Part shown: positions 22,037 to 34,021 of the stretch, in pieces
Numbering within the stretch: position 1 is the stretch's first letter
How the letters are laid out: every line of letters begins with the position of its first letter
NCBI GenBank assembly: GCA_963517175.1
Contig: CAUQEY010000001.1
Coordinates: 1 to 40,857 of the forward strand
Length of the DNA stretch: 40,857 nucleotides
Origin: an uncultured Candidatus Saccharibacteria bacterium
GTDB taxonomy: Bacteria > Patescibacteriota > Saccharimonadia > Saccharimonadales > Saccharimonadaceae
Direction: 5' to 3'
Made by a program: the position numbers and the translations under genes
Notes under the pieces: generated by a model
Told to the model about the DNA's origin: nothing
What the model saw: the letters and a program-made list of their open reading frames with translations, nothing else
Database searches by the model: none

Positions 22037-24520
22037 TTATGGTTTCTGAGTGAAGTAGCCCTTAGCGCCTGGGCGGTCGATGCGAAGCCAAGTTTTGTCG
22101 GCAGACGCAGGATTCACGAGGAAGGAGCCATTGCCACCACGTAGTTTAAGCTGATTTCGAAATACATTATCAAATTCAGTACCAGCAGAAATGTTAAAAT
22201 CTTGACTGACGTAAATTTTTTCCAATTTAGTTTCGAGCGGGCGCGAGGAAGCAAACATGTTGCTAAATTTATTCACCTTCGCAGTATTAAAATTACTCAA
22301 ATCAAGTTCGGTAAGACTATTCGTATCTGTAAACATGCCACGCATATCTGTCACACTAGCCGTAGAAAAACGTCCGCCGAGATTGATTGAGGATAAAGCC
22401 GCCATGCCGGAAAAAATATCTTGCATATTATGGACCTTACTAGTGTCAAGATGACTGAAGTCAAGATTTTCGAGCTTACTAGTACTATAAAACATACGAT
22501 ACATGGATTCTACTTTACTGGTATCGAAGGACGAAATGTTGAGATTTTTTAGCTCAAACATATAGCTAAACATGGATGCCATATTTGTCACATTCCTAGT
22601 ATCAAACTGTGAAAGATCCAGACTGACCAACTTACGATCATTAAAGAACATATTATACAAACTGTTTGCCTTAGAAGTATTAAAATTGTGTCCAAGCTCA
22701 AGACTAGTGAGATTCAGCATGCCACTAAACATACCAGCCATACTAATACTTTCACTGGTATTAAAAGTCGAGACATCAAGTGAAGTGAGGTTCGAGCAGG
22801 CATTAAACATATTGGTAAAATCTGTAACTTTTCTAGTATCAAAACTCGAAAGATCAATTTCCTGCAATTGATTACAATTATTGAACATACTATTCATATT
22901 AGTGACATTACTAGTCTGGAAATTAGGGCTTAAAATAATCTTTTTTACATTACTCATACCGCTAAACATAGCACTCGTAGTAATCACTTTTCTGGTATCA
23001 AAATTCGAGAGATCAAGCTCCTCCAGAAGGATGCAGTTTGAAAACATGCTGGCCATATTTGTCACATTGTGAGTCTTAAATTTGTCACTAATTTTAAAAT
23101 CGGTCATTGAGCGGAGATTACCAAACATGGAGAGCATGTTGGTGACCTTAGAAGTATCAAAATTACGGATATCGAGGCTAGTGAGCTTGGTAGCGCCACC
23201 AAACATGGTTTGCATATTGGTGACCTTAGTCGTATCAAAACTCGAAACATTCAGACTAGTGAGATTACCACAATCCTTAAACATTTCCTGCATATTAACA
23301 ACATTAGCGGTATTAAAATTCCCTAAATCTAGTGACATTATATTACTTGCGCCACTAAACATATTGCCCATATCTTTTACATTGGCAGTATCGAAATTCG
23401 AGAGATCAAGATTCTGCAAAGAGGAAACGCCCATAAACATACGAGAGAAGCTTTTAACATTTTTCGTTTTAAAACTAGAAATATTGAGATTTTTCAGGGA
23501 TCCCATATAGGCAAACATATTAGTCATCGCAGTGACACGGGAAGTTTTAAAGGTAGAAAGATCTAGGTTTACCACACTTCTGGCGTTATTAAACATAAAA
23601 GACATATCCTTCACGTAACGTGTATCGAGTCCAGACAAATCAATATCAGTAATATTAAGGATGTTATTAAAAATCTGACGTGAGTCTTCATTCATGTAGA
23701 CGCGGTCATTCTCGCAATAGTAGTAAACTGTTTTGTCTGCCGGATCAAACCAAGCTAAAATTTCATAGCTTGACTCATCAGAATCTTCAATATTGATAGT
23801 TTTCATGGCAGCCGTCGGTGCGGTCGGGCTTCGCTTGAACCCCTTAATAGCATGCAAATTGGTGCCGGCAAGGATTGCACTACGAGCAATTTTCTGGTTT
23901 AAATCCGGTCCTCTTGTGAGCGTAGCGTTGGTACCGGCATTATTATTTGAAATAACCGAAATCATGAGTGTGTTTTTATAACTACCGCTCAAAAGATCGG
24001 TACCCAAATTCATGCCAATGGTAATATTCTTGACTTCATTGCCATCAGTTTTTTCATCAGAGTTAAAAAGATTGGTCGGACTGGCAACTGAACCTATTGG
24101 TCGAAAATCAGCCTCATCATCCATTTTATAACCCCAGGTCTTAGCCGGGAAATTATTTAGAGTATTGTCACTCGGAATTGAATTAATCTTATCGGTAACA
24201 GTAGAATTCGGGCTAACGAGTGCAGTATTATTCGAATCGGTACTAATAATGATGCGGTAGCCACTTTTATCGTTAGAGTTAACAGTTAGTTTCGTGGTCG
24301 CTTCCTGAAGTTGTGGATTCGCGGAGCGATCATCATTACCGTGAAATACCGCCGATGACTGATTAAGAGCCGCAGACAAAGACGGCGTAAAGAGAGCGTA
24401 AGTTTGGGGAGCAAAAATCATGTTCAAGCTAAAAATTGAGGCCGTTAGGGTAAAAAAGCCGGCGAGACTTTTCAGCCATGAACGGGTGATTCGCAGTTTT
24501 TGATTTTTATCGCTCGTCAT
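22037..24520 (-). CDS. Secreted BspA/DUF285-type LRR protein (about 18 repeats)
   Basis: Signal peptide ending TYA, shared N-domain, 18 counted repeats of 26-27 aa, C-cap LRGGNGS...ADKTWLRIDRPGAKGYFTQKP. Start set to ATG 24520 because the longer ORF overlaps the rpsJ terminator. Confidence 0.9.
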   Translation of the reverse strand: MTSDKNQKLRITRSWLKSLAGFFTLTASIFSLNMIFAPQTYALFTPSLSAALNQSSAVFHGNDDRSANPQLQEATTKLTVNSNDKSGYRIIISTDSNNTALVSPNSTVTDKINSIPSDNTLNNFPAKTWGYKMDDEADFRPIGSVASPTNLFNSDEKTDGNEVKNITIGMNLGTDLLSGSYKNTLMISVISNNNAGTNATLTRGPDLNQKIARSAILAGTNLHAIKGFKRSPTAPTAAMKTINIEDSDESSYEILAWFDPADKTVYYYCENDRVYMNEDSRQIFNNILNITDIDLSGLDTRYVKDMSFMFNNARSVVNLDLSTFKTSRVTAMTNMFAYMGSLKNLNISSFKTKNVKSFSRMFMGVSSLQNLDLSNFDTANVKDMGNMFSGASNIMSLDLGNFNTANVVNMQEMFKDCGNLTSLNVSSFDTTKVTNMQTMFGGATKLTSLDIRNFDTSKVTNMLSMFGNLRSMTDFKISDKFKTHNVTNMASMFSNCILLEELDLSNFDTRKVITTSAMFSGMSNVKKIILSPNFQTSNVTNMNSMFNNCNQLQEIDLSSFDTRKVTDFTNMFNACSNLTSLDVSTFNTSESISMAGMFSGMLNLTSLELGHNFNTSKANSLYNMFFNDRKLVSLDLSQFDTRNVTNMASMFSYMFELKNLNISSFDTSKVESMYRMFYSTSKLENLDFSHLDTSKVHNMQDIFSGMAALSSINLGGRFSTASVTDMRGMFTDTNSLTELDLSNFNTAKVNKFSNMFASSRPLETKLEKIYVSQDFNISAGTEFDNVFRNQLKLRGGNGSFLVNPASADKTWLRIDRPGAKGYFTQKP

Positions 24521-24560
24521 GCAGGATAATTTTAACATAAAGATTATCGTAAAACAAATC

Positions 24561-24588
24561 AAAAATCCCAATACTAGATTGGGATTTT
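24561..24588 (-). terminator. rpsJ terminator
   Basis: AAAATCCCAAT-actag-ATTGGGATTTT. Confidence 0.8.
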
Positions 24589-25086: not shown

Positions 25087-26271
25087 TTATTTGATAATCT
25101 TGGTAACAACACCAGAACCGACAGTACGGCCACCTTCGCGGATAGCGAAACGGTCGTTGTTGTTCATAGCGATAGCTGAAAGAAGCTTGACCTGGAAGGT
25201 AACGGTGTCACCTGGCATGACGATTTCTTTGTCAGCTGGAAGTTCGACTTCACCGGTTACATCGGTAGTACGGAAGTAGAATTGTGGCTTGTAACCCTTT
25301 GAGAATGGGGTGTGGCGGCCGCCTTCTTCTTTCTTCAAGATGTAAACCTGAGCTTCGAATTCAGTGTGTGGGGTGATAGAACCTGGCTTAGCAATAACCT
25401 GACCACGTTCGATTTGTTCGCGTTCGATACCACGGAGCAAGAGACCGGCGTTATCACCAGCTTCACCTTCGTTAAGAGTCTTGTGGAAAGCCTCGATACC
25501 GGTAACGACAGACTTTTGAGTTGGCTTCAAACCAACGATTTCAACTTCGTCGTTCAATTTGACAACACCCTGTTCGATACGACCAGTAGCGACGGTACCA
25601 CGACCCTTGATGGAGAAGACATCTTCGATTGGCATCAAGAATGGTTTGTCAAGATCGTGTTCAGGAATGTCAAAGTATTCATCCATAGCGTGGACGAGAT
25701 CCATGATGCGGTCTTCCATTTCGGTGTCGCCTTCAAGAGCCTTAAGAGCAGAGCCCTTGATGATTGGAGCGTTGTCACCGTCGAAGCCGTACTTGTTCAA
25801 AAGTTCACGGACATCCATTTCAACGAGCTCAACGAGTTCTGGGTCAGCAAGATCCATCTTGTTGAGGAAGACAATGATTTTTGGTACGTTCACCTGGTGA
25901 GCAAGAAGTACGTGCTCACGAGTTTGTGGAAGTGGACCATCGTTAGCAGCAACTACGAGGATAGCACCATCGATTTGAGCAGCACCGGTAATCATGTTCT
26001 TGATGTAGTCGGCGTGGCCTGGCATATCTACGTGAGCGTAGTGACGCTTTTCTGATTCGTACTCTTGGTGAGAGGTAGCAATGGTAATACCACGAGCTTT
26101 TTCTTCTGGAGCGTTGTCGATCTGATCGTAAGCAACTGATTTGTTAACTTCAGATGGGAGGCGCTTCGCAAGTACGGTGGTAATAGCAGCAGTAAGAGTA
26201 GTCTTACCGTGGTCAACGTGACCCATAGTACCAACGTTAATGTGTGGCTTGGAACGGTCGAAATTTGCCAT
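25087..26271 (-). CDS. tuf: Elongation factor Tu
   Basis: [47 protein letters not shown]. Confidence 0.99.
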
Positions 26272-26486: not shown

Positions 26487-26849
26487 TTAATCTTCTGGTA
26501 CGACTTTGACCAAATCATGGCGTTCACGATCCCACTCACAGCCACAGCCATAATCATCAAAATCAACTTCGTCGTCTGCGATTTTAGGGATTCTGTTCTT
26601 GGGGCTTCTATCAAACTGAAAATGATAGCAACCCTGGTCCAGTTCTTCATCGATTCTAGCAATTCTTTCCGCTAGAAGTTTCTCGTGTTGATGATAGAGA
26701 ATGAAAACTAGCGCCGGAAGTAAGGTCAGCACGATCCAACCACAGACAAAAATATCAATCCGCAGAATCAGAATAATGCGAAAATAGTTCAGCACCAGAC
26801 AGAATAGACCAGCCAAAAAACACGACAATGTAACTAGTATTGCAAACAT
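26487..26849 (-). CDS. Hypothetical membrane protein (two TM helices, acidic C-terminus with CGC)
   Basis: AAGGGGG RBS, TGGTAGAAT extended -10 upstream, hydrophobic N-half. Confidence 0.6.
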   Translation of the reverse strand: MFAILVTLSCFLAGLFCLVLNYFRIILILRIDIFVCGWIVLTLLPALVFILYHQHEKLLAERIARIDEELDQGCYHFQFDRSPKNRIPKIADDEVDFDDYGCGCEWDRERHDLVKVVPED

Positions 26850-26966
26850 ACAATTTCCCCCTTTTCTAAAGAACTTACTGATTTTTCCATTTTTTTGAAA
26901 AACTAACCTGCATATTCTACCATATTTTGCGCTTTTTTGCCAGTAATTAATCCATTTATGTTAAAA

Positions 26967-26995
26967 TTGACTTTTTTGTGAAAAAATTGTAGAAT
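26967..26995 (+). promoter_or_regulatory. Sigma70 promoter of the lipoprotein gene
   Basis: TTGACT-N17-TAGAAT. Confidence 0.75.
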
Positions 26996-27045
26996 ATAGC
27001 TAACTTTTAGGCCACTTAAACCTACGCACGTTAAAATGGAGGTGC

Positions 27046-28542
27046 ATGATGAAGAGACAATTCCTGTTTTTGTCACTCGCTCTCGGCTTAGTTGCTTGCA
27101 ACGCCCAGAGTAAAACCGTAGTTCCGGAGACTTCCGAAGTAGAAACTACCGCGAAAGCGGAAGTGAAGCATGAAGAAGAAACCGATAATCCATACGAGAT
27201 GGATGCTCAACTGACGGCAGCGGTGGATGCTTCCGAATTCGGTGGCGGCGAAGTAGCCGGACCGATTAGGGATGCCACGCCTGACGTATTAGAAGCTAGA
27301 CGAGCAGCCAGAAATGATTATGGATTAGCACCGTTAAAGGACCCCGACCCAGGTAGGTCACGCCCAGGCACATTCCAAATGGTTTCTGAATTTAATATCA
27401 GAGCAGTGGAAGACCTGAGAGATCGACTTGTATCGCAATCTGGCAGCTATATCTCTGATTTTATGGTGCCAAGTAACGTAATTCTCTTCCCGAAGCATTT
27501 AACTCAAAGTATCAGAGGAAATTCTGTGCTCGAAGTAAATACCGATGCCGGAGAGAATAGCTATTACCACTATCGGAATATACCGACTTATATCAAGGAT
27601 GGTACTGACGCTGGGTTCCTAGATCCATATCTGAATGGCCGCACGCCAAACTTTACCGGAGCTGACGGAATTAATTATACGCAGTTCCTGGTGCAGAATT
27701 TGGTAGATGAATTTCACACTACTAATTACGACCCCATGGAGCCGATTGAACCAGATGAACCGGACACTATTTCTTTTACGGCGGAGTATATGCTGAGACG
27801 TATTAAGCAAGAAGCTTCTGAGCCACTTCCCACCCATCAGAAAAATGACCCAAAGACCTACACTAGATTTGGCGAGTTTGACCTGGTTGGCTATATGAGA
27901 GATAACGGGTTCAACCTCAGATTAGCTGATAGCTTCCCGGCACTGGACGTCTATACCTTTATTTGCGAAGCGAATCCGAAATTAATGATTCGGTTCGATG
28001 CAAATTATGGAGCGGAGGGTAAGCAGATAAACGATCTTGGCAACATGGCAGATTTTGAAAAACGTCTGGTACCCTACCGCATTGATTCACGCCGACATAT
28101 AAGCGGGCTGTTTTACGGTATTGGTGTAAATGGGATTGAAGTCTACTATGTGAAAGATGACCGGCTTTTCCCAAATTCCGGCTATGGCAGAACTGATGCG
28201 AGACCGGAAGATTTCTATCACGTGATGCACAAGATGAAACTTACGGATATTGATCATAATGGTGGACCCTATTTTTCTAATGATGGTAATGTTTTATTGC
28301 TGTCACCAGAACTTTCGAGTTTCTATGCAGAGATGCAGTTGAAGCGTTTTATCGAGAATAATCCTAACTATGACCCGTCGAAGGATCAATATCGTGCATT
28401 GTATTATGTACGTGAAGATTCGGTGGATTTGATCAGGCGAGTAGTGGAGCGTACTAATGCTCTGGTTGGGCACGAGTCTAACCTTAATCGCGATGATTTG
28501 TTTAAGGATATCGACGCAAATGTAGTCGTAAGACGAAATTAA
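27046..28542 (+). CDS. Hypothetical protein with lipoprotein-type signal peptide
   Basis: MMKRQFLFLSLALGLVA-C lipobox, E/T-rich linker, GGAGGTG RBS, own promoter and terminator. No family recognised. Confidence 0.75.
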   Translation: MMKRQFLFLSLALGLVACNAQSKTVVPETSEVETTAKAEVKHEEETDNPYEMDAQLTAAVDASEFGGGEVAGPIRDATPDVLEARRAARNDYGLAPLKDPDPGRSRPGTFQMVSEFNIRAVEDLRDRLVSQSGSYISDFMVPSNVILFPKHLTQSIRGNSVLEVNTDAGENSYYHYRNIPTYIKDGTDAGFLDPYLNGRTPNFTGADGINYTQFLVQNLVDEFHTTNYDPMEPIEPDEPDTISFTAEYMLRRIKQEASEPLPTHQKNDPKTYTRFGEFDLVGYMRDNGFNLRLADSFPALDVYTFICEANPKLMIRFDANYGAEGKQINDLGNMADFEKRLVPYRIDSRRHISGLFYGIGVNGIEVYYVKDDRLFPNSGYGRTDARPEDFYHVMHKMKLTDIDHNGGPYFSNDGNVLLLSPELSSFYAEMQLKRFIENNPNYDPSKDQYRALYYVREDSVDLIRRVVERTNALVGHESNLNRDDLFKDIDANVVVRRN

Positions 28543-28658: not shown

Positions 28659-30761
28659 TTACTTAGAAGTATTACGCTTCTCAATGATTTCTTGAGCGAC
28701 GTTAGGTGGTACTTCCTCGTATTGCGCGAGCTCCATAGAAGAAGCGGCACGACCTTGGCTCATGGAGCGGAGATCGGAAGTGTAACCGAAGAGGTTAGCA
28801 AGTGGAGCGAAAGCGGTAATAAGCTTAGCGCCACCTTGGATGTCTTCCATAGCGTCGATGCGACCACGACGAGAGTTAATATCGCCGATCACATCGCCCA
28901 TGAACTCTTCAGGGGTAGTAACTTCAAGCTTCATAAATGGCTCAAGAAGCACTGGTTTGGCTTTCTTGATACCTTCACGGGTAGCTAGGCTTCCAGCGAG
29001 TTTGAAGGCGAGCTCGGAAGAGTCGACATCGTGGTAAGAACCATCGTAAAGAGTAGCCTTAATGTCAACTACTGGGTAACCAGCAATCACACCACCATTA
29101 AGAGTTTCTTCAACACCTTGTTGAACTGGCTTGCGGTATTCTTGTGGAACCACACCACCCTTAATCATATCGATGAATTCGAAGCCCTTACCAGATTCAT
29201 TTGGCTCAAACTTAATCCAAACATCACCGTATTGACCACGACCACCGGATTGCTTAATGTGCTTACCTTGAGCTTCGGCAGTACCACGAATAGTTTCACG
29301 GTAGGCAACCTGAGGAGCACCAGTATTAGCTTCCACGTTATGTTCACGTTTCAAGCGATCGATAATGATTTCGAGGTGAAGCTCACCCATACCAGAAATA
29401 ATGGTTTGGCCGGTTTCTTCATCGGTGTGAACACGAAAAGTTGGATCTTCTTCAGCAAGTTTAGCAAGACCGAGACCCATTTTTTCTTGGTCAGCCTTAG
29501 TCTTAGGCTCAACCGCGATAGAAACAGGTGGTTCTGGGAATTCGATAGATTCAAGGTGAATTGGGTGGGCTGGATCACAAAGAGTGGTACCAGTGGTGGT
29601 TTCCTTGAGACCGACGATAGCGGCGATATCACCAGCGGCAACTTCAGAGATTTCTTCACGCTTATCAGCGAACATACGGACGAGACGACCGACGCGTTCC
29701 TTATTGCCGGTAGTAGCGTTCAAGATGTAAGAGCCGGATTTCAAAACACCAGAGTAAACACGGACGAAGACGAGCTTACCGACAAATGGGTCAGAAGCAA
29801 TCTTGAAAGCAAGAGCGGTGAGAGGTTCAGTGACAGAAGCCTTACGGATAACCTTATCGCCAGTCTTTGGATCGGTACCAACAGTTTGACCGAGATCACG
29901 GTCAAGAGGTGAAGGGAGGTAATCAACACAGAGGTCGAGAACTTTTTCGACGATCACACCACGACCATCACCACCGGTAACGAGGAAGAAGTCACCGTCA
30001 AGCACGCGCTTACGAAGAGCTACTTTAAGTTCAGCTTCGGTGATAGCCTCTTCACCTTCGGCGAAGTACTTGTTCATCAAATCTTCATCAGCAGCTACAG
30101 CTTCTTCAACGAGAAGAGCACGAGCTTTCTTAGCCTTGTCAAGCATATCAGCAGGAATTTCGCCAACGGTCAAAGAGTGGTCGGCATATTCCTTGTAGGT
30201 GTAGGCCTTCATATCAATAAGGTCGACGACACCACAGATATCTTTTTCGAAACCAATTGGAAGGTGAATAGCGAAAGCATTCTTCGAGAGACGCTTGTGG
30301 ATAGAGTCGAGAGACTTGTAGAAGTCACCACCGATTTGGTTAATTTTGTTAATGAAACAGAGACGTGGCACGCCGTACTTGGTAGCTTGGCGCCAAACAG
30401 TTTCGGATTGAGCTTCGACACCCATCTTACCATCGAAAACGGTGACGGCACCATCGAGCACGCGAAGAGAACGTTCTACTTCGGCGGTAAAGTCGATGTG
30501 GCCCGGGGTATCAATAATGTTAATTTTGTGACCTTTCCAAGTGGCGGTAACAGCTGCGGAAGTAATAGTAATACCACGTTCCTTTTCCTGTTCCATCCAG
30601 TCAGTGGTAGCACCACCGGTGTCACCCTTGACGAGGTCGATTTTGTGCTTCAAGCCAGTACGGTAGAGGATAGCCTCTGAAGTCGTGGTCTTGCCTGCAT
30701 CAATATGTGCAATAATGCCAATATTGCGCAATTTTGATAAATCATGTGTAGCTTCTGCCAT
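28659..30761 (-). CDS. fusA: Elongation factor G with non-canonical G4/G5 motifs
   Basis: [71 protein letters not shown]. Confidence 0.98.
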
Positions 30762-30871: not shown

Positions 30872-32383
30872 TTATGGGCCAGTTGAAGGTTGTCCAGGTT
30901 TAATCTTGACACATTCACGGTCGTCACCATAAATACGATGGAAGTATCCGATAATGGTCTTGGCCATAGAACCATCAGTTTTTACCGTATTATATTCAGT
31001 GAACACACAACCGTTATTATAGTATGAACCAACTAGACTTGTATCACCCTCAAACATCTCGCTACTCTCAGAGACATAAGTTAAGTCAAGGTCATGATTA
31101 GTCTTAATCTCTTCCAGTTTATTGTTACCTTTAAACATCTTCTTAGTGTTATTTAATTCAGGGGAGAATTGATTATCGCCGAAATTGATTCGCTTAAACC
31201 CTTCATCAGTACGTTCAAACATAGATTCCATGTTCTTACAGTTCGAAATATCAATCCCAGAAAGGTCTAGGTTATCGAAACGTGGCGCATTATCCGTAGA
31301 GAAGAAATTAGAGCAGTTTTCACCAAGTTTCAAGGTTCCCGATGGAGTCCACCAGCGTAAACCACCATCGTCGGATCTTGAGGCCCAGATTAAAACTGGT
31401 TCCTCATCATCGGTATTATTGGCGGTGGCATTATACATATTAAAACATATTACCCTGTTAGGAGGACAAGCTGGTAACGGAACGCCAGGAACAATAGAGT
31501 CCTCACTAATTAATAAATAGTCCGGTTTTATATTGGAAGTAATAGTCTTATCATCAATGATTTCACTAGAATACTCCTGTGGGGTTGGTTTAGCATACTT
31601 AAAGCTATTAAACTCCGCCTTTCTGCCATAATAATTATTTGGAATTCTGCGGAAGGCCGAATAACCGTCTTTAAGGGTGGCTGGTTTTAAATTATTAGTA
31701 TTAGCTAAAGTACTGAAAATCATTTTGCCAACATAGGTCGATGGAGCTAATTGCTTATTAATCGAAAGACCACAGTAGACGCCGTTATTTTTATTGTCAT
31801 TAGGTTTTACATATTTCACTTCATCAATTAATCGTGGGTGACTTCTGGTAGGAATTGCTAAATCATTGTTAGTGGAATTGATTTTCACTACTTCTCCCGT
31901 AACCGTATCTCGAACCTCTAAAATACCGCAATACCAGTAATTATCAGTGGTATTTTTTGGCTGGCCGTTTTCAAAATCGGAAGGAGTGGCAGAGCGAATA
32001 GAGTCGGTCACCGTAGCATCTATGCTTCGCATATTGATATCCTCATCAACATCTGAGAAGTAAACTTTGTAGCCGGCAGGATTATTAGTCTCGACTGTCG
32101 GTATAAAAGTGGTATTATTTTGAGCCTCATGTTCCACCCCATCTGAAGTAAGATAGACATCATTAAATTTATGGAAGGTTTCATTGACGCTCATTGCAAG
32201 CTTGATATCACCTGGCTTTAGAACCGGTTTTTCTTCTGCATGAGCAAAATTCATAAAATTTGGCGCGAGGGCGAGGGTGCCGAGAATAAGCGCTGTGCCA
32301 CCAAGCGAAATAATCGGCAAGAAACCAAAAATGCACTGCCACTTTCGCGATGGCCTCTTAAAAAATGTTTTGATTTTAGACAT
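30872..32383 (-). CDS. Secreted Cys-containing BspA-like protein (2-3 degenerate repeats)
   Basis: Long signal peptide ending AHA, shared N-domain (TNNPAGY...LAPSTY...IFSTLAN), LDLSGIDISNCKNMESMF, C-terminal GYFH. Start at 32383 has an AAAGG RBS; 32395 is the alternative. Confidence 0.75.
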   Translation of the reverse strand: MSKIKTFFKRPSRKWQCIFGFLPIISLGGTALILGTLALAPNFMNFAHAEEKPVLKPGDIKLAMSVNETFHKFNDVYLTSDGVEHEAQNNTTFIPTVETNNPAGYKVYFSDVDEDINMRSIDATVTDSIRSATPSDFENGQPKNTTDNYWYCGILEVRDTVTGEVVKINSTNNDLAIPTRSHPRLIDEVKYVKPNDNKNNGVYCGLSINKQLAPSTYVGKMIFSTLANTNNLKPATLKDGYSAFRRIPNNYYGRKAEFNSFKYAKPTPQEYSSEIIDDKTITSNIKPDYLLISEDSIVPGVPLPACPPNRVICFNMYNATANNTDDEEPVLIWASRSDDGGLRWWTPSGTLKLGENCSNFFSTDNAPRFDNLDLSGIDISNCKNMESMFERTDEGFKRINFGDNQFSPELNNTKKMFKGNNKLEEIKTNHDLDLTYVSESSEMFEGDTSLVGSYYNNGCVFTEYNTVKTDGSMAKTIIGYFHRIYGDDRECVKIKPGQPSTGP

Positions 32384-32548
32384 ACTACCTTTCATTTTGA
32401 TTTTTGTGCTTATGCTTCTAGCTCTATTTTATATCATTTATGGTTTTATTCAAGGTATGTTCTTAGTCTTTGCAACAAAATCTATATTTGTTTTGATGAA
32501 GAATTTTTAAGATTTAATCAATGTATTTTATGAGAACTACAAACAAAT

Positions 32549-32574
32549 AAAAAGAGAGCGCGCGGCTCTCTTTT
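32549..32574 (-). terminator. Terminator of LRR-like gene 6
   Basis: AAAAGAGAGC-gcgcg-GCTCTCTTTT. Confidence 0.8.
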
Positions 32575-32587
32575 CTTAATATTTTCA

Positions 32588-34021
32588 TTATAGCTGTTGC
32601 TCTTCACATATATTTGGATCACTACCGTCATGCAGATACCCCCACCCTGTTACTGCCCTCCTAGCATCTACACCATAGCTCTCCTCATAGAGAGTACTAG
32701 TGCAACCAATTTTGCCGTAAGATAGCTTCCAGGTTTTATATCCTTCCAATTTAATATCCCCAAGGAACATTTCATTACTTTCTGGCACATAGCTTAAATC
32801 GGTTCCAGGAGATACAATAATCTTCGTAAGATCCGGGTTGTTTTTAAACATCTTCTTGGTGTTCTTTAGTTCTGGTGAGAATTTATTGTCTCCAAAATTA
32901 ATTACTTTAAATCCATCATCATTACAATTTGAAATGTCTACATTCGATAAATCAATTCCATCAAATCTAGGGCTGCGACCAGATGCAAAAAATGAGGAAC
33001 AATCTTCTCCAAAAGTCAAAGTACCAGATGGGGTCCACCAGTTCAGCGACCTTTCACATCCACTTCTCCACATCAATATTGGTTCCATTTCTTCAGATTC
33101 CGCAGCGTCATACATTTCCATTTGAGCTGGACATGATGGGGATGGTTGCCCCATAAATACTTCATAGTCTGACTTAAGTTGAGATACAATTCGTCCGTCA
33201 TTAAGTATATGCTCGCTATAATTATTCCACGGCTTTGTATATTTAAATTTACTGAAGCCACCCCCTACATCTCTTGCTTTGCGAAAGAACTGTTCGCTGT
33301 TTGTGATTTTTGCATTGATTAAATTATTAGTGTTCGCTACAGAGCTAAAAATTACACTATCTGTGTATGTAGAAGGTGCTAATTGCTTATTAATGGATAC
33401 TCCACAATGGACACCCTTTGATCTAGATTCATTTGGTCTTACGTATTTAACTTCCTCAATCATTTTCGGTGAACTTTTAGTTGGAATACTCAATTCATTA
33501 TTATTGGAGTTTGTTTTTTGTATATGAGTGAATCCCTCTGGAGCGCTATTAATAATTCCACAATACCAATAATTATCAGCGGTATTTTTCGGTTCACCGT
33601 TTTTAAAATCAGCAGGAGTGGCGGAACGAATGGAGTCAGTTACTGTAGACTCAATACTTCTCATATTGGTATCCTCATCGGCGTCCGAGAAAAAAATCTT
33701 ATACCCAGCAGGATTATTAGTTTGAACTTTTGGAATTATGGAAACGGTATTTTTATCAGGCTCTTGTGATGTACCAAGGGATGTCAAATAAACATCATCA
33801 AATTTATGCAATGATAAATTTACACTCATGGAGAGGGTGATGTCTTTTTGCTTTGGCGAAGTTGTGTTTTCTTCAGCATATGCGAAGTTCATAAAATTAG
33901 GAACAATGGCAAAAGTACCTAAGATAAGAGATATACCACCAAATGAAAAGATTGGCAGGAGATTAAAAGCATGCTGACAGAACCCCTGAACTCTTTTTAG
34001 AAATTTAACGGGTTTTAGCAT
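32588..34021 (-). CDS. Secreted Cys-containing BspA-like protein, tandem paralog of 30872-32383
   Basis: Shares VTDSIRSATP, DNYWYCG, SINKQLAPSTY, WWTPSGTL and FSPEL with its neighbour. AGGAGA RBS. Confidence 0.75.
   Translation of the reverse strand: MLKPVKFLKRVQGFCQHAFNLLPIFSFGGISLILGTFAIVPNFMNFAYAEENTTSPKQKDITLSMSVNLSLHKFDDVYLTSLGTSQEPDKNTVSIIPKVQTNNPAGYKIFFSDADEDTNMRSIESTVTDSIRSATPADFKNGEPKNTADNYWYCGIINSAPEGFTHIQKTNSNNNELSIPTKSSPKMIEEVKYVRPNESRSKGVHCGVSINKQLAPSTYTDSVIFSSVANTNNLINAKITNSEQFFRKARDVGGGFSKFKYTKPWNNYSEHILNDGRIVSQLKSDYEVFMGQPSPSCPAQMEMYDAAESEEMEPILMWRSGCERSLNWWTPSGTLTFGEDCSSFFASGRSPRFDGIDLSNVDISNCNDDGFKVINFGDNKFSPELKNTKKMFKNNPDLTKIIVSPGTDLSYVPESNEMFLGDIKLEGYKTWKLSYGKIGCTSTLYEESYGVDARRAVTGWGYLHDGSDPNICEEQQL

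Follow-up and report, generated by a model that had tools for sequence, protein, structure and literature searches.

The window, by which we mean the whole stretch of 40,857 nucleotides analysed here from an uncultured Candidatus Saccharibacteria bacterium, carries on its minus strand fusA, the gene for elongation factor G (EF-G). Downstream of it lie two orphan ORFs of 120 aa (minus strand) and 498 aa (opposite strand; lipoprotein-like and without an NCBIfam match) at 26487-28542, then tuf, encoding EF-Tu, and rpsJ, directly after which comes an 844-aa PARCEL-repeat surface protein (22037-24571). Upstream, at 30872-34021, are metK and two related ORFs (507 and 477 aa) that probably encode surface proteins; the longer of them has no NCBIfam match. 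The rpsG gene does not precede fusA in the window but is found on another contig, C10 (G000:C10:1262-1699).

Table 1. Features of the fusA-tuf region, in window positions
Feature	Position	Strand	Remark
fusA, 700-aa EF-G	28659..30761	-	sole EF-G detected in genome; TIGR00484, AF2 fold
G1 P-loop AHIDAGKTT, aa 18-26	30684..30710	-	intact; P-loop sequence kept in 114/114 variants
G2 switch I RGITI, aa 62-66	30564..30578	-	intact; kept in 113/114 variants
G3 DTPGH incl. catalytic His88	30498..30512	-	intact; kept in 114/114 variants
Lys112-Met113	30423..30428	-	K in 54/59 and M in 54/59 variants; canonical rows mostly V and A
G4 NKIN-Q, aa 138-142	30336..30350	-	altered; Asn141 for guanine N1/N2-reading Asp, Gln142 for Arg/Lys
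Asp194, G' insert	30180..30182	-	D in 50/59 variants; G in 84/85 canonical rows
G5 GGDGRG, aa 263-268	29958..29975	-	altered; Asp265 (29967-29969) for O6-binding Ser
Segment travelling with variant state, core ~aa 100-280	29922..30464	-	possibly extending 5' to aa 30 or past it
Domains II-V, aa 300-695	28677..29864	-	track family relationships, not pocket state; domain IV loops intact
tuf (EF-Tu)	25087..26271	-	canonical NKMD and GSALK; internal control

In a profile search, the fusA product scores 1020.5 bits against the TIGR00484 equivalog model over residues 5-697 (cut-off 659.4) and stays below the cut-offs of three EF-G2-type models (522 against 890, 469 against 1000 and 539 against 597 bits). 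It keeps G1, RGITI, DTPGH and the domain IV loops required of an EF-G; its AF2 model, built from a 75-row alignment of variants, has the EF-G fold (pLDDT 81), and the top Foldseek matches of this model are all EF-G (E 1e-90, TM ~0.8). A homologue search with the protein returned near-identical copies and nothing else. It is the one EF-G copy in its genome, which is 82% complete and where the remaining matches are two LepA/TypA-type genes and EF-Tu, and one EF-G match per genome was also found throughout our class and phylum draws, with a single exception (G168). Together with the profile scores, these counts rule out a secondary paralog.

The G4 motif reads N138-K-I-N141 (AAC AAA ATT AAC, minus strand, 30339-30350) and is followed by Q142; compared with solved EF-Gs, the G5 loop lacks one residue, right after Asp265. 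Where a canonical, GTP-specific pocket has NKxD in G4 and the Ser of (G)SA in G5, the window protein thus has NKIN and Asp. Aligned to PDB 7cdw, its N141 falls on D141 and its D265 on S265, the two positions whose side chains are described as reading guanine in solved EF-G (PMC8446442), so that both base-reading side chains have changed. An earlier, sequence-only reading of this DNA stands on most of these points: it had named the G4 change, the new Asp at the G5 Ser position, the intact P-loop, RGITI and DTPGH, and the canonical NKMD and GSALK of the adjacent EF-Tu, all of which we read likewise, and had taken the protein for the housekeeping translocase, with which its single copy and profile scores agree; a second canonical fusA, proposed there as a check, was not found in the 82%-complete genome. 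The G5 motif GGDGRG was also correct, but the positions assigned to the longer loop quoted around it, 29958-29981, cover VTGGDGRG only, the full loop spanning 29949-29984.

Linkage and distribution of the altered motifs

The two changes are perfectly linked. Among 199 distinct EF-G sequences, a set enriched for close matches whose counts are therefore no measure of frequency, 114 combine a G4 Asn with GGDxR and 85 a G4 Asp with a canonical G5, with no mixed row; one apparent combination of Asp with GGDxR (P0137) is a 116-aa fragment that lacks G4. Diverged forms read NKINL, NKLNL and, in one genome (L383), NKLS in place of the Asn at G4, and GGDSR, GGDNR or GGDFR at G5. Further columns vary with the variant state (59 variant against 85 canonical rows), namely Q/L142, K112-M113, D194 and positions 30, 34 and 272; Lys112-Met113 may have some role in the variant pocket, and one might speculate that Asp194 partners Arg267. 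G1-G3 hardly vary among the 114 variants, so phosphate binding and catalysis are still under selection. Judged by its sequence, then, the protein has its phosphate-binding and catalytic machinery and its tRNA-moving loops intact, and two base-reading side chains changed jointly. Its switch I (DLVKGDTGG, 30612-30638) is two residues longer than in other families, and family f1 shows varying insertions there.

Of 30 relatives at genus and order level, 4 had no fusA match; the fusA genes obtained from the others carry the pair NKINQ and GGDGRG in 26/26 cases, and so does the complete genome NZ_CP076459.1, which excludes both error and chance; synonymous codons are in use at both positions (Asn141: AAC 79, AAT 34; Asp265: GAT 75, GAC 38), and a sequencing or assembly artefact is ruled out on all these grounds. 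In an even draw of 151 Patescibacteria genomes, of which 148 were matched and 147 read (G194 being the unread one), 55/147 carry the variant, 48/140 outside the window's class. About a third of the sampled Patescibacteria, very small bacteria that depend on a host, therefore carry an EF-G in which both GTP-recognising residues are swapped. The covariation of G4 and G5 that the sequence-only reading proposed to look for is thus complete, and the lineage-wide occurrence that it suspected extends well beyond the lineage.

Scanning 185,579 genomes for the motif pattern gave at least 119 matches, and all 77 with a readable G5 have GGDxR (42 were unread); the labels among the matches listed include Saccharibacteria, Berkelbacteria, Doudnabacteria and WWE3. 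Three matches listed bear proteobacterial labels, but these lie on contigs of 3-20 kb, share 75-90% identity with EF-G of Patescibacteria across 340-376 aa, and are therefore probably misbinned rather than evidence of the variant outside the phylum. A phage carrier is ruled out, both viral matches being not EF-G. A G4 Asn is found in 7/150 cluster representatives. Two further loci deserve mention: a variant fusA match with three in-frame TGA codons in a 2-contig genome (L425, G096:C1:414900-416000), possibly assembly errors, and a 619-aa EF-G-like frame that may encode a ribosomal protection protein (G020:C8:2561-4324; 46% over the G domain). No description of the variant pocket in EF-G was found in full-text searches, outside of which most subscription journals lay, nor by term look-up in the portions so covered of three surveys of translational GTPases (PMC1780047, PMC4342817, PMC12172202). 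We are thus dealing with a real and conserved variant of the EF-G nucleotide pocket that is apparently undescribed.

Different histories of residues 100-280 and domains II-V

The variant state follows the history of one part of the gene. In a tree of 160 columns from residues 100-280, motif columns removed (155 rows), the 70 variants all fall into a single clade with a support of 0.96 and 1 change of state, whereas in a tree of residues 300-695 (150 rows) the pocket state takes 21 changes and variant and canonical rows are often sisters; both trees comprise loci L055 onward, five order rows and the query, most own-family near-copies being left out. Differentiation between the states is 0.18-0.41 in most windows of residues 88-287 (0.09 in one) and 0.21 at residues 8-67, and falls to 0.02 or less beyond residue 288. 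On domains II-V, monophyly of the variants is rejected by an AU test (p=1.9e-5) on 41 rows that were chosen as sister pairs once the first tree had been seen; the starred branches there require no fewer than 11 changes. Both states occur within one family in 5/113 family codes, a count that is independent of the trees. Residues ~100-280 thus differ in history from domains II-V. A single vertical origin of the whole gene is ruled out on domains II-V by the 21 changes and the AU test, and pure convergence of the motifs is unlikely, since the non-motif columns, and residues 148-261 alone, give one clade.

We propose that an alternative G-domain allele had a single origin within Patescibacteria and that its segment would have entered resident fusA genes by homologous recombination, mostly between relatives; among the rows tested, the canonical segment would have been displaced 11 times or more. 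Patescibacteria are reported to retain genes for competence and recombination (PMC12455944). The variant allele seems to have been passed between lineages, and stepwise replacement among relatives fits the data best. The direction and mode of the spread are less sure, since segment distances track those of domains II-V (rho 0.69 for variant and 0.59 for canonical rows) and few strong splits conflict with them (3/15 variant, 1/18 canonical). On the AU-test tree, by eye, the longer domain II-V branch is on the variant row in 11/13 pairs.

The scatter could also be accounted for by history alone, without selection on the pocket: as an ancient balanced polymorphism, as gene-converted ancient duplicates that were lost differentially, or through hitch-hiking of the 5' part of fusA with an upstream variable slot. 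We regard this as possible, if rather unlikely. It gains from the trees of both alleles, which largely follow domains II-V, and from the window's class, where variant and canonical segments each group by class; variable gene slots do flank the window's fusA, and variant-type sites at residues 30-34 suggest that the tract can start near or before the gene start. Against it, no genome with both types was found at E<1e-60 among 142 and 148 matched genomes (overlapping sets), and the two double copies, in G168 (the only double match of the class and phylum draws) and in G013, are variant. Variant segments are moreover shallower across families at every level of divergence, with depth ratios to domains II-V of 0.75-1.07 against 1.46-1.61 for canonical ones, although stronger constraint could also make them so, and the segment of a genome from another class (L075) falls within those of the window's class.

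EF-Tu, the nucleotide pocket and its likely fuel

A parallel change is found in EF-Tu. In the order of genome G193 (families f64 and f126-f129), where EF-G is variant in 10/10 genomes read, EF-Tu was matched in 58/61 genomes and read in 34. The G4 Asp is absent in 32 of these, 32/32 read as the resident type, G4 being NKFG in 12, NTFG in 11, NDFG in 4 and other in 5, and G5 having Asp in 24, Ser in 6 and Asn in 2; the remaining two rows are canonical, sit at the ends of contigs and come from genomes that have a variant copy too. Switch I is also rewritten in the EF-Tu of this order (L328-L355, L371-L375, L386-L387; e.g. KLDKDPESRAKSITI). IF2, LepA and TypA of five genomes of the order keep NKxD in 15/15 proteins, as do EF-Tu, IF2 and the two LepA/TypA-type genes of the window's own genome. 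EF-Tu is canonical in 29/31 variant-EF-G loci where it was read, and a search of 201 genomes gave close scores to the variant EF-Tu only in 8 of family f64. Loss of EF-Ts alongside the variant EF-Tu is ruled out (EF-Ts is present in 4/4); in the window's own, incomplete genome EF-Ts was not found. EF-Tu has lost its G4 Asp independently in this order. The two factors that act at every codon have thus shifted the same way, which suggests that selection acted on the pocket, even though the EF-Tu change, confined to one lineage, counts as one independent event. The sequence-only reading missed both this parallel and the mosaic history of fusA.

As to the fuel, guanine offers O6 as an acceptor and N1-H and N2-H as donors, while adenine offers N6-H2 as a donor and N1 as an acceptor, and ATP-binding proteins are described as reading mostly N1 and N6 (PMC11594714). 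Exchanging Ser for Asp and Asp for Asn would invert the polarity at both sites and so match adenine: by hydrogen-bond polarity, Asn141 could donate to adenine N1 and Asp265 could accept from N6-H2. ATP would thereby become a usable fuel, and a flip of the Asn amide could still permit GTP. We consider a fuel change in the variant EF-G likely, and think it somewhat more probable than otherwise that ATP is accepted by the pocket, either exclusively or in addition to GTP, relaxed purine specificity being as likely as strict ATP use; cells with the variant may then run protein synthesis partly on ATP. The cell might gain by being relieved of about half the GTP that elongation requires, or by escaping guanine-nucleotide inhibitors such as ppGpp. 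The wider picture, in which a large share of Patescibacteria would translocate with an ATP-preferring EF-G whose G domain had swept from lineage to lineage through recombination within this essential gene, and one order would have moved both elongation factors off strict GTP, is offered more tentatively, as falling a little short of probable.

As the main alternative, the pocket may have been rebuilt and yet remained GTP-specific, with Asp265 taking guanine N1-H, the Asn141 oxygen N2-H and its amide holding Asp265, in which case the allele would differ in affinity, kinetics or ppGpp sensitivity with the same fuel. The exchange does leave one carboxylate beside the base, and guanine binders without NKxD are common (43% of 298 complexes, 20.5% using another Asp/Glu, as tabulated in PMC11594714), so that Asp265 may have taken over guanine N1. 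As if a nearby Asp were required, 4/6 EF-Tu variant rows that keep the G5 Ser have Asp at the second G4 position (NDFG). Retention of GTP would also agree with the lack of a metabolic correlate: among 80 chosen genomes, 42 variant and 38 canonical, the pocket state shows no association (Fisher p 0.17-1.0) with Ndk (39/42 against 38/38), RelA/SpoT (30/42 against 24/38), Gmk (14/42 against 19/38) or ATP synthase (25/42 against 23/38). We therefore reject these as metabolic drivers, and the earlier suggestion that an altered specificity would suit a nucleotide-auxotrophic parasite finds no support in them; with Ndk nearly universal, ATP and GTP are interconvertible in any case. In about half of the Ndk matches the aligned region falls into two parts of a single ORF, suggesting an insertion of ~30 residues. 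We nevertheless hold a relocated Asp to be the less likely reading, because a carboxylate that replaces the Ser faces O6, itself an acceptor, where repulsion is expected (from the contacts in PMC8446442), and the G4 of EF-Tu in the G193 order is degenerate (NKFG, NTFG, NQFG, NKFP) rather than neatly swapped. A neutral swap would also leave the repeated replacement of a working allele unexplained.

Much less probable is a pocket that prefers or tolerates XTP or ITP without using ATP. The G4 Asp-to-Asn mutants EF-Tu D138N and Ras D119N do shift toward xanthine nucleotides. Cellular XTP and ITP are scarce, however, too little for a sole translocase, and xanthine use would leave the invariant G5 Asp unexplained, as xanthine also bears O6. 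For Ypt1, D124N alone is reported to convert specificity to XTP, not ATP (PMC2120555). We give slightly less credence still to loosened base recognition in an EF-G that works with little hydrolysis, or with hydrolysis uncoupled from it. The loss of both canonical base contacts fits this, but G1, G2, G3 and His88 hardly vary, the new motifs show no decay and are conserved as well as the old ones, and the window protein falls below the cut-offs of the EF-G2 family. Little or uncoupled hydrolysis is how Bacteroides EF-G2 works.

Significance and comparison with known GTPases

To our knowledge, dependence on GTP is regarded as a universal trait of EF-G and EF-Tu. If acceptance of ATP is borne out, the variant would be a natural exception to GTP-driven bacterial elongation, and with a natural, essential EF-G using ATP or both fuels one could test directly for what reason translation depends on GTP, and whether elongation can bypass its control by ppGpp; sister genomes with either allele within one family are ready comparisons. 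Whatever the fuel, the repeated partial replacement of a core translation gene makes fusA unsafe as a phylogenetic marker for Patescibacteria.

Canonical bacterial EF-G (FusA, TIGR00484; PDB 2xex, 7cdw, 1dar) shares with the window protein the five-domain fold, ~50-57% identity, G1-G3, the domain IV loops, the single copy and the proximity of tuf and rpsJ, but has NKxD and GSAxKNKG where the latter carries NKIN and the shorter GGDGRG; the pocket is canonical in all PDB relatives with an alignment displayed. EF-G2 and other divergent paralogs (NF009377, NF058620, NF009891) are likewise EF-G homologues with changed G motifs, G2 and G5 being described as altered in mycobacterial EF-G2 (PMC8446442), yet these are second copies, whereas the window EF-G is the only copy, keeps RGITI and lies below all three cut-offs. 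The engineered XTPases (Ypt1 D124N, EF-Tu D138N, Ras D119N) have the G4 Asp-to-Asn change in common with the variant, but are single laboratory mutations with a canonical G5, while the variant is natural, essential and tied to the Ser-to-Asp change in G5. The ATP-preferring YchF/OLA1 of the Obg family is, like the variant EF-G, a TRAFAC G domain with altered G4 and G5. The window's own genome has a separate YchF-like gene (C74), and an Obg-like GTPase at G000:C9:13030-14367 has TKCE in place of TKxD at G4. YchF/OLA1 is described as accepting ATP, and in rice GTP too, through (N/T)(M/L/V)xE, with a backbone carbonyl and a Ser reading N6 (PMC10144078); the window protein has neither this G4 nor the Obg architecture and is an EF-G. 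YchF shows that a G domain can accept ATP, though by a different motif and in another family that is no translocase.
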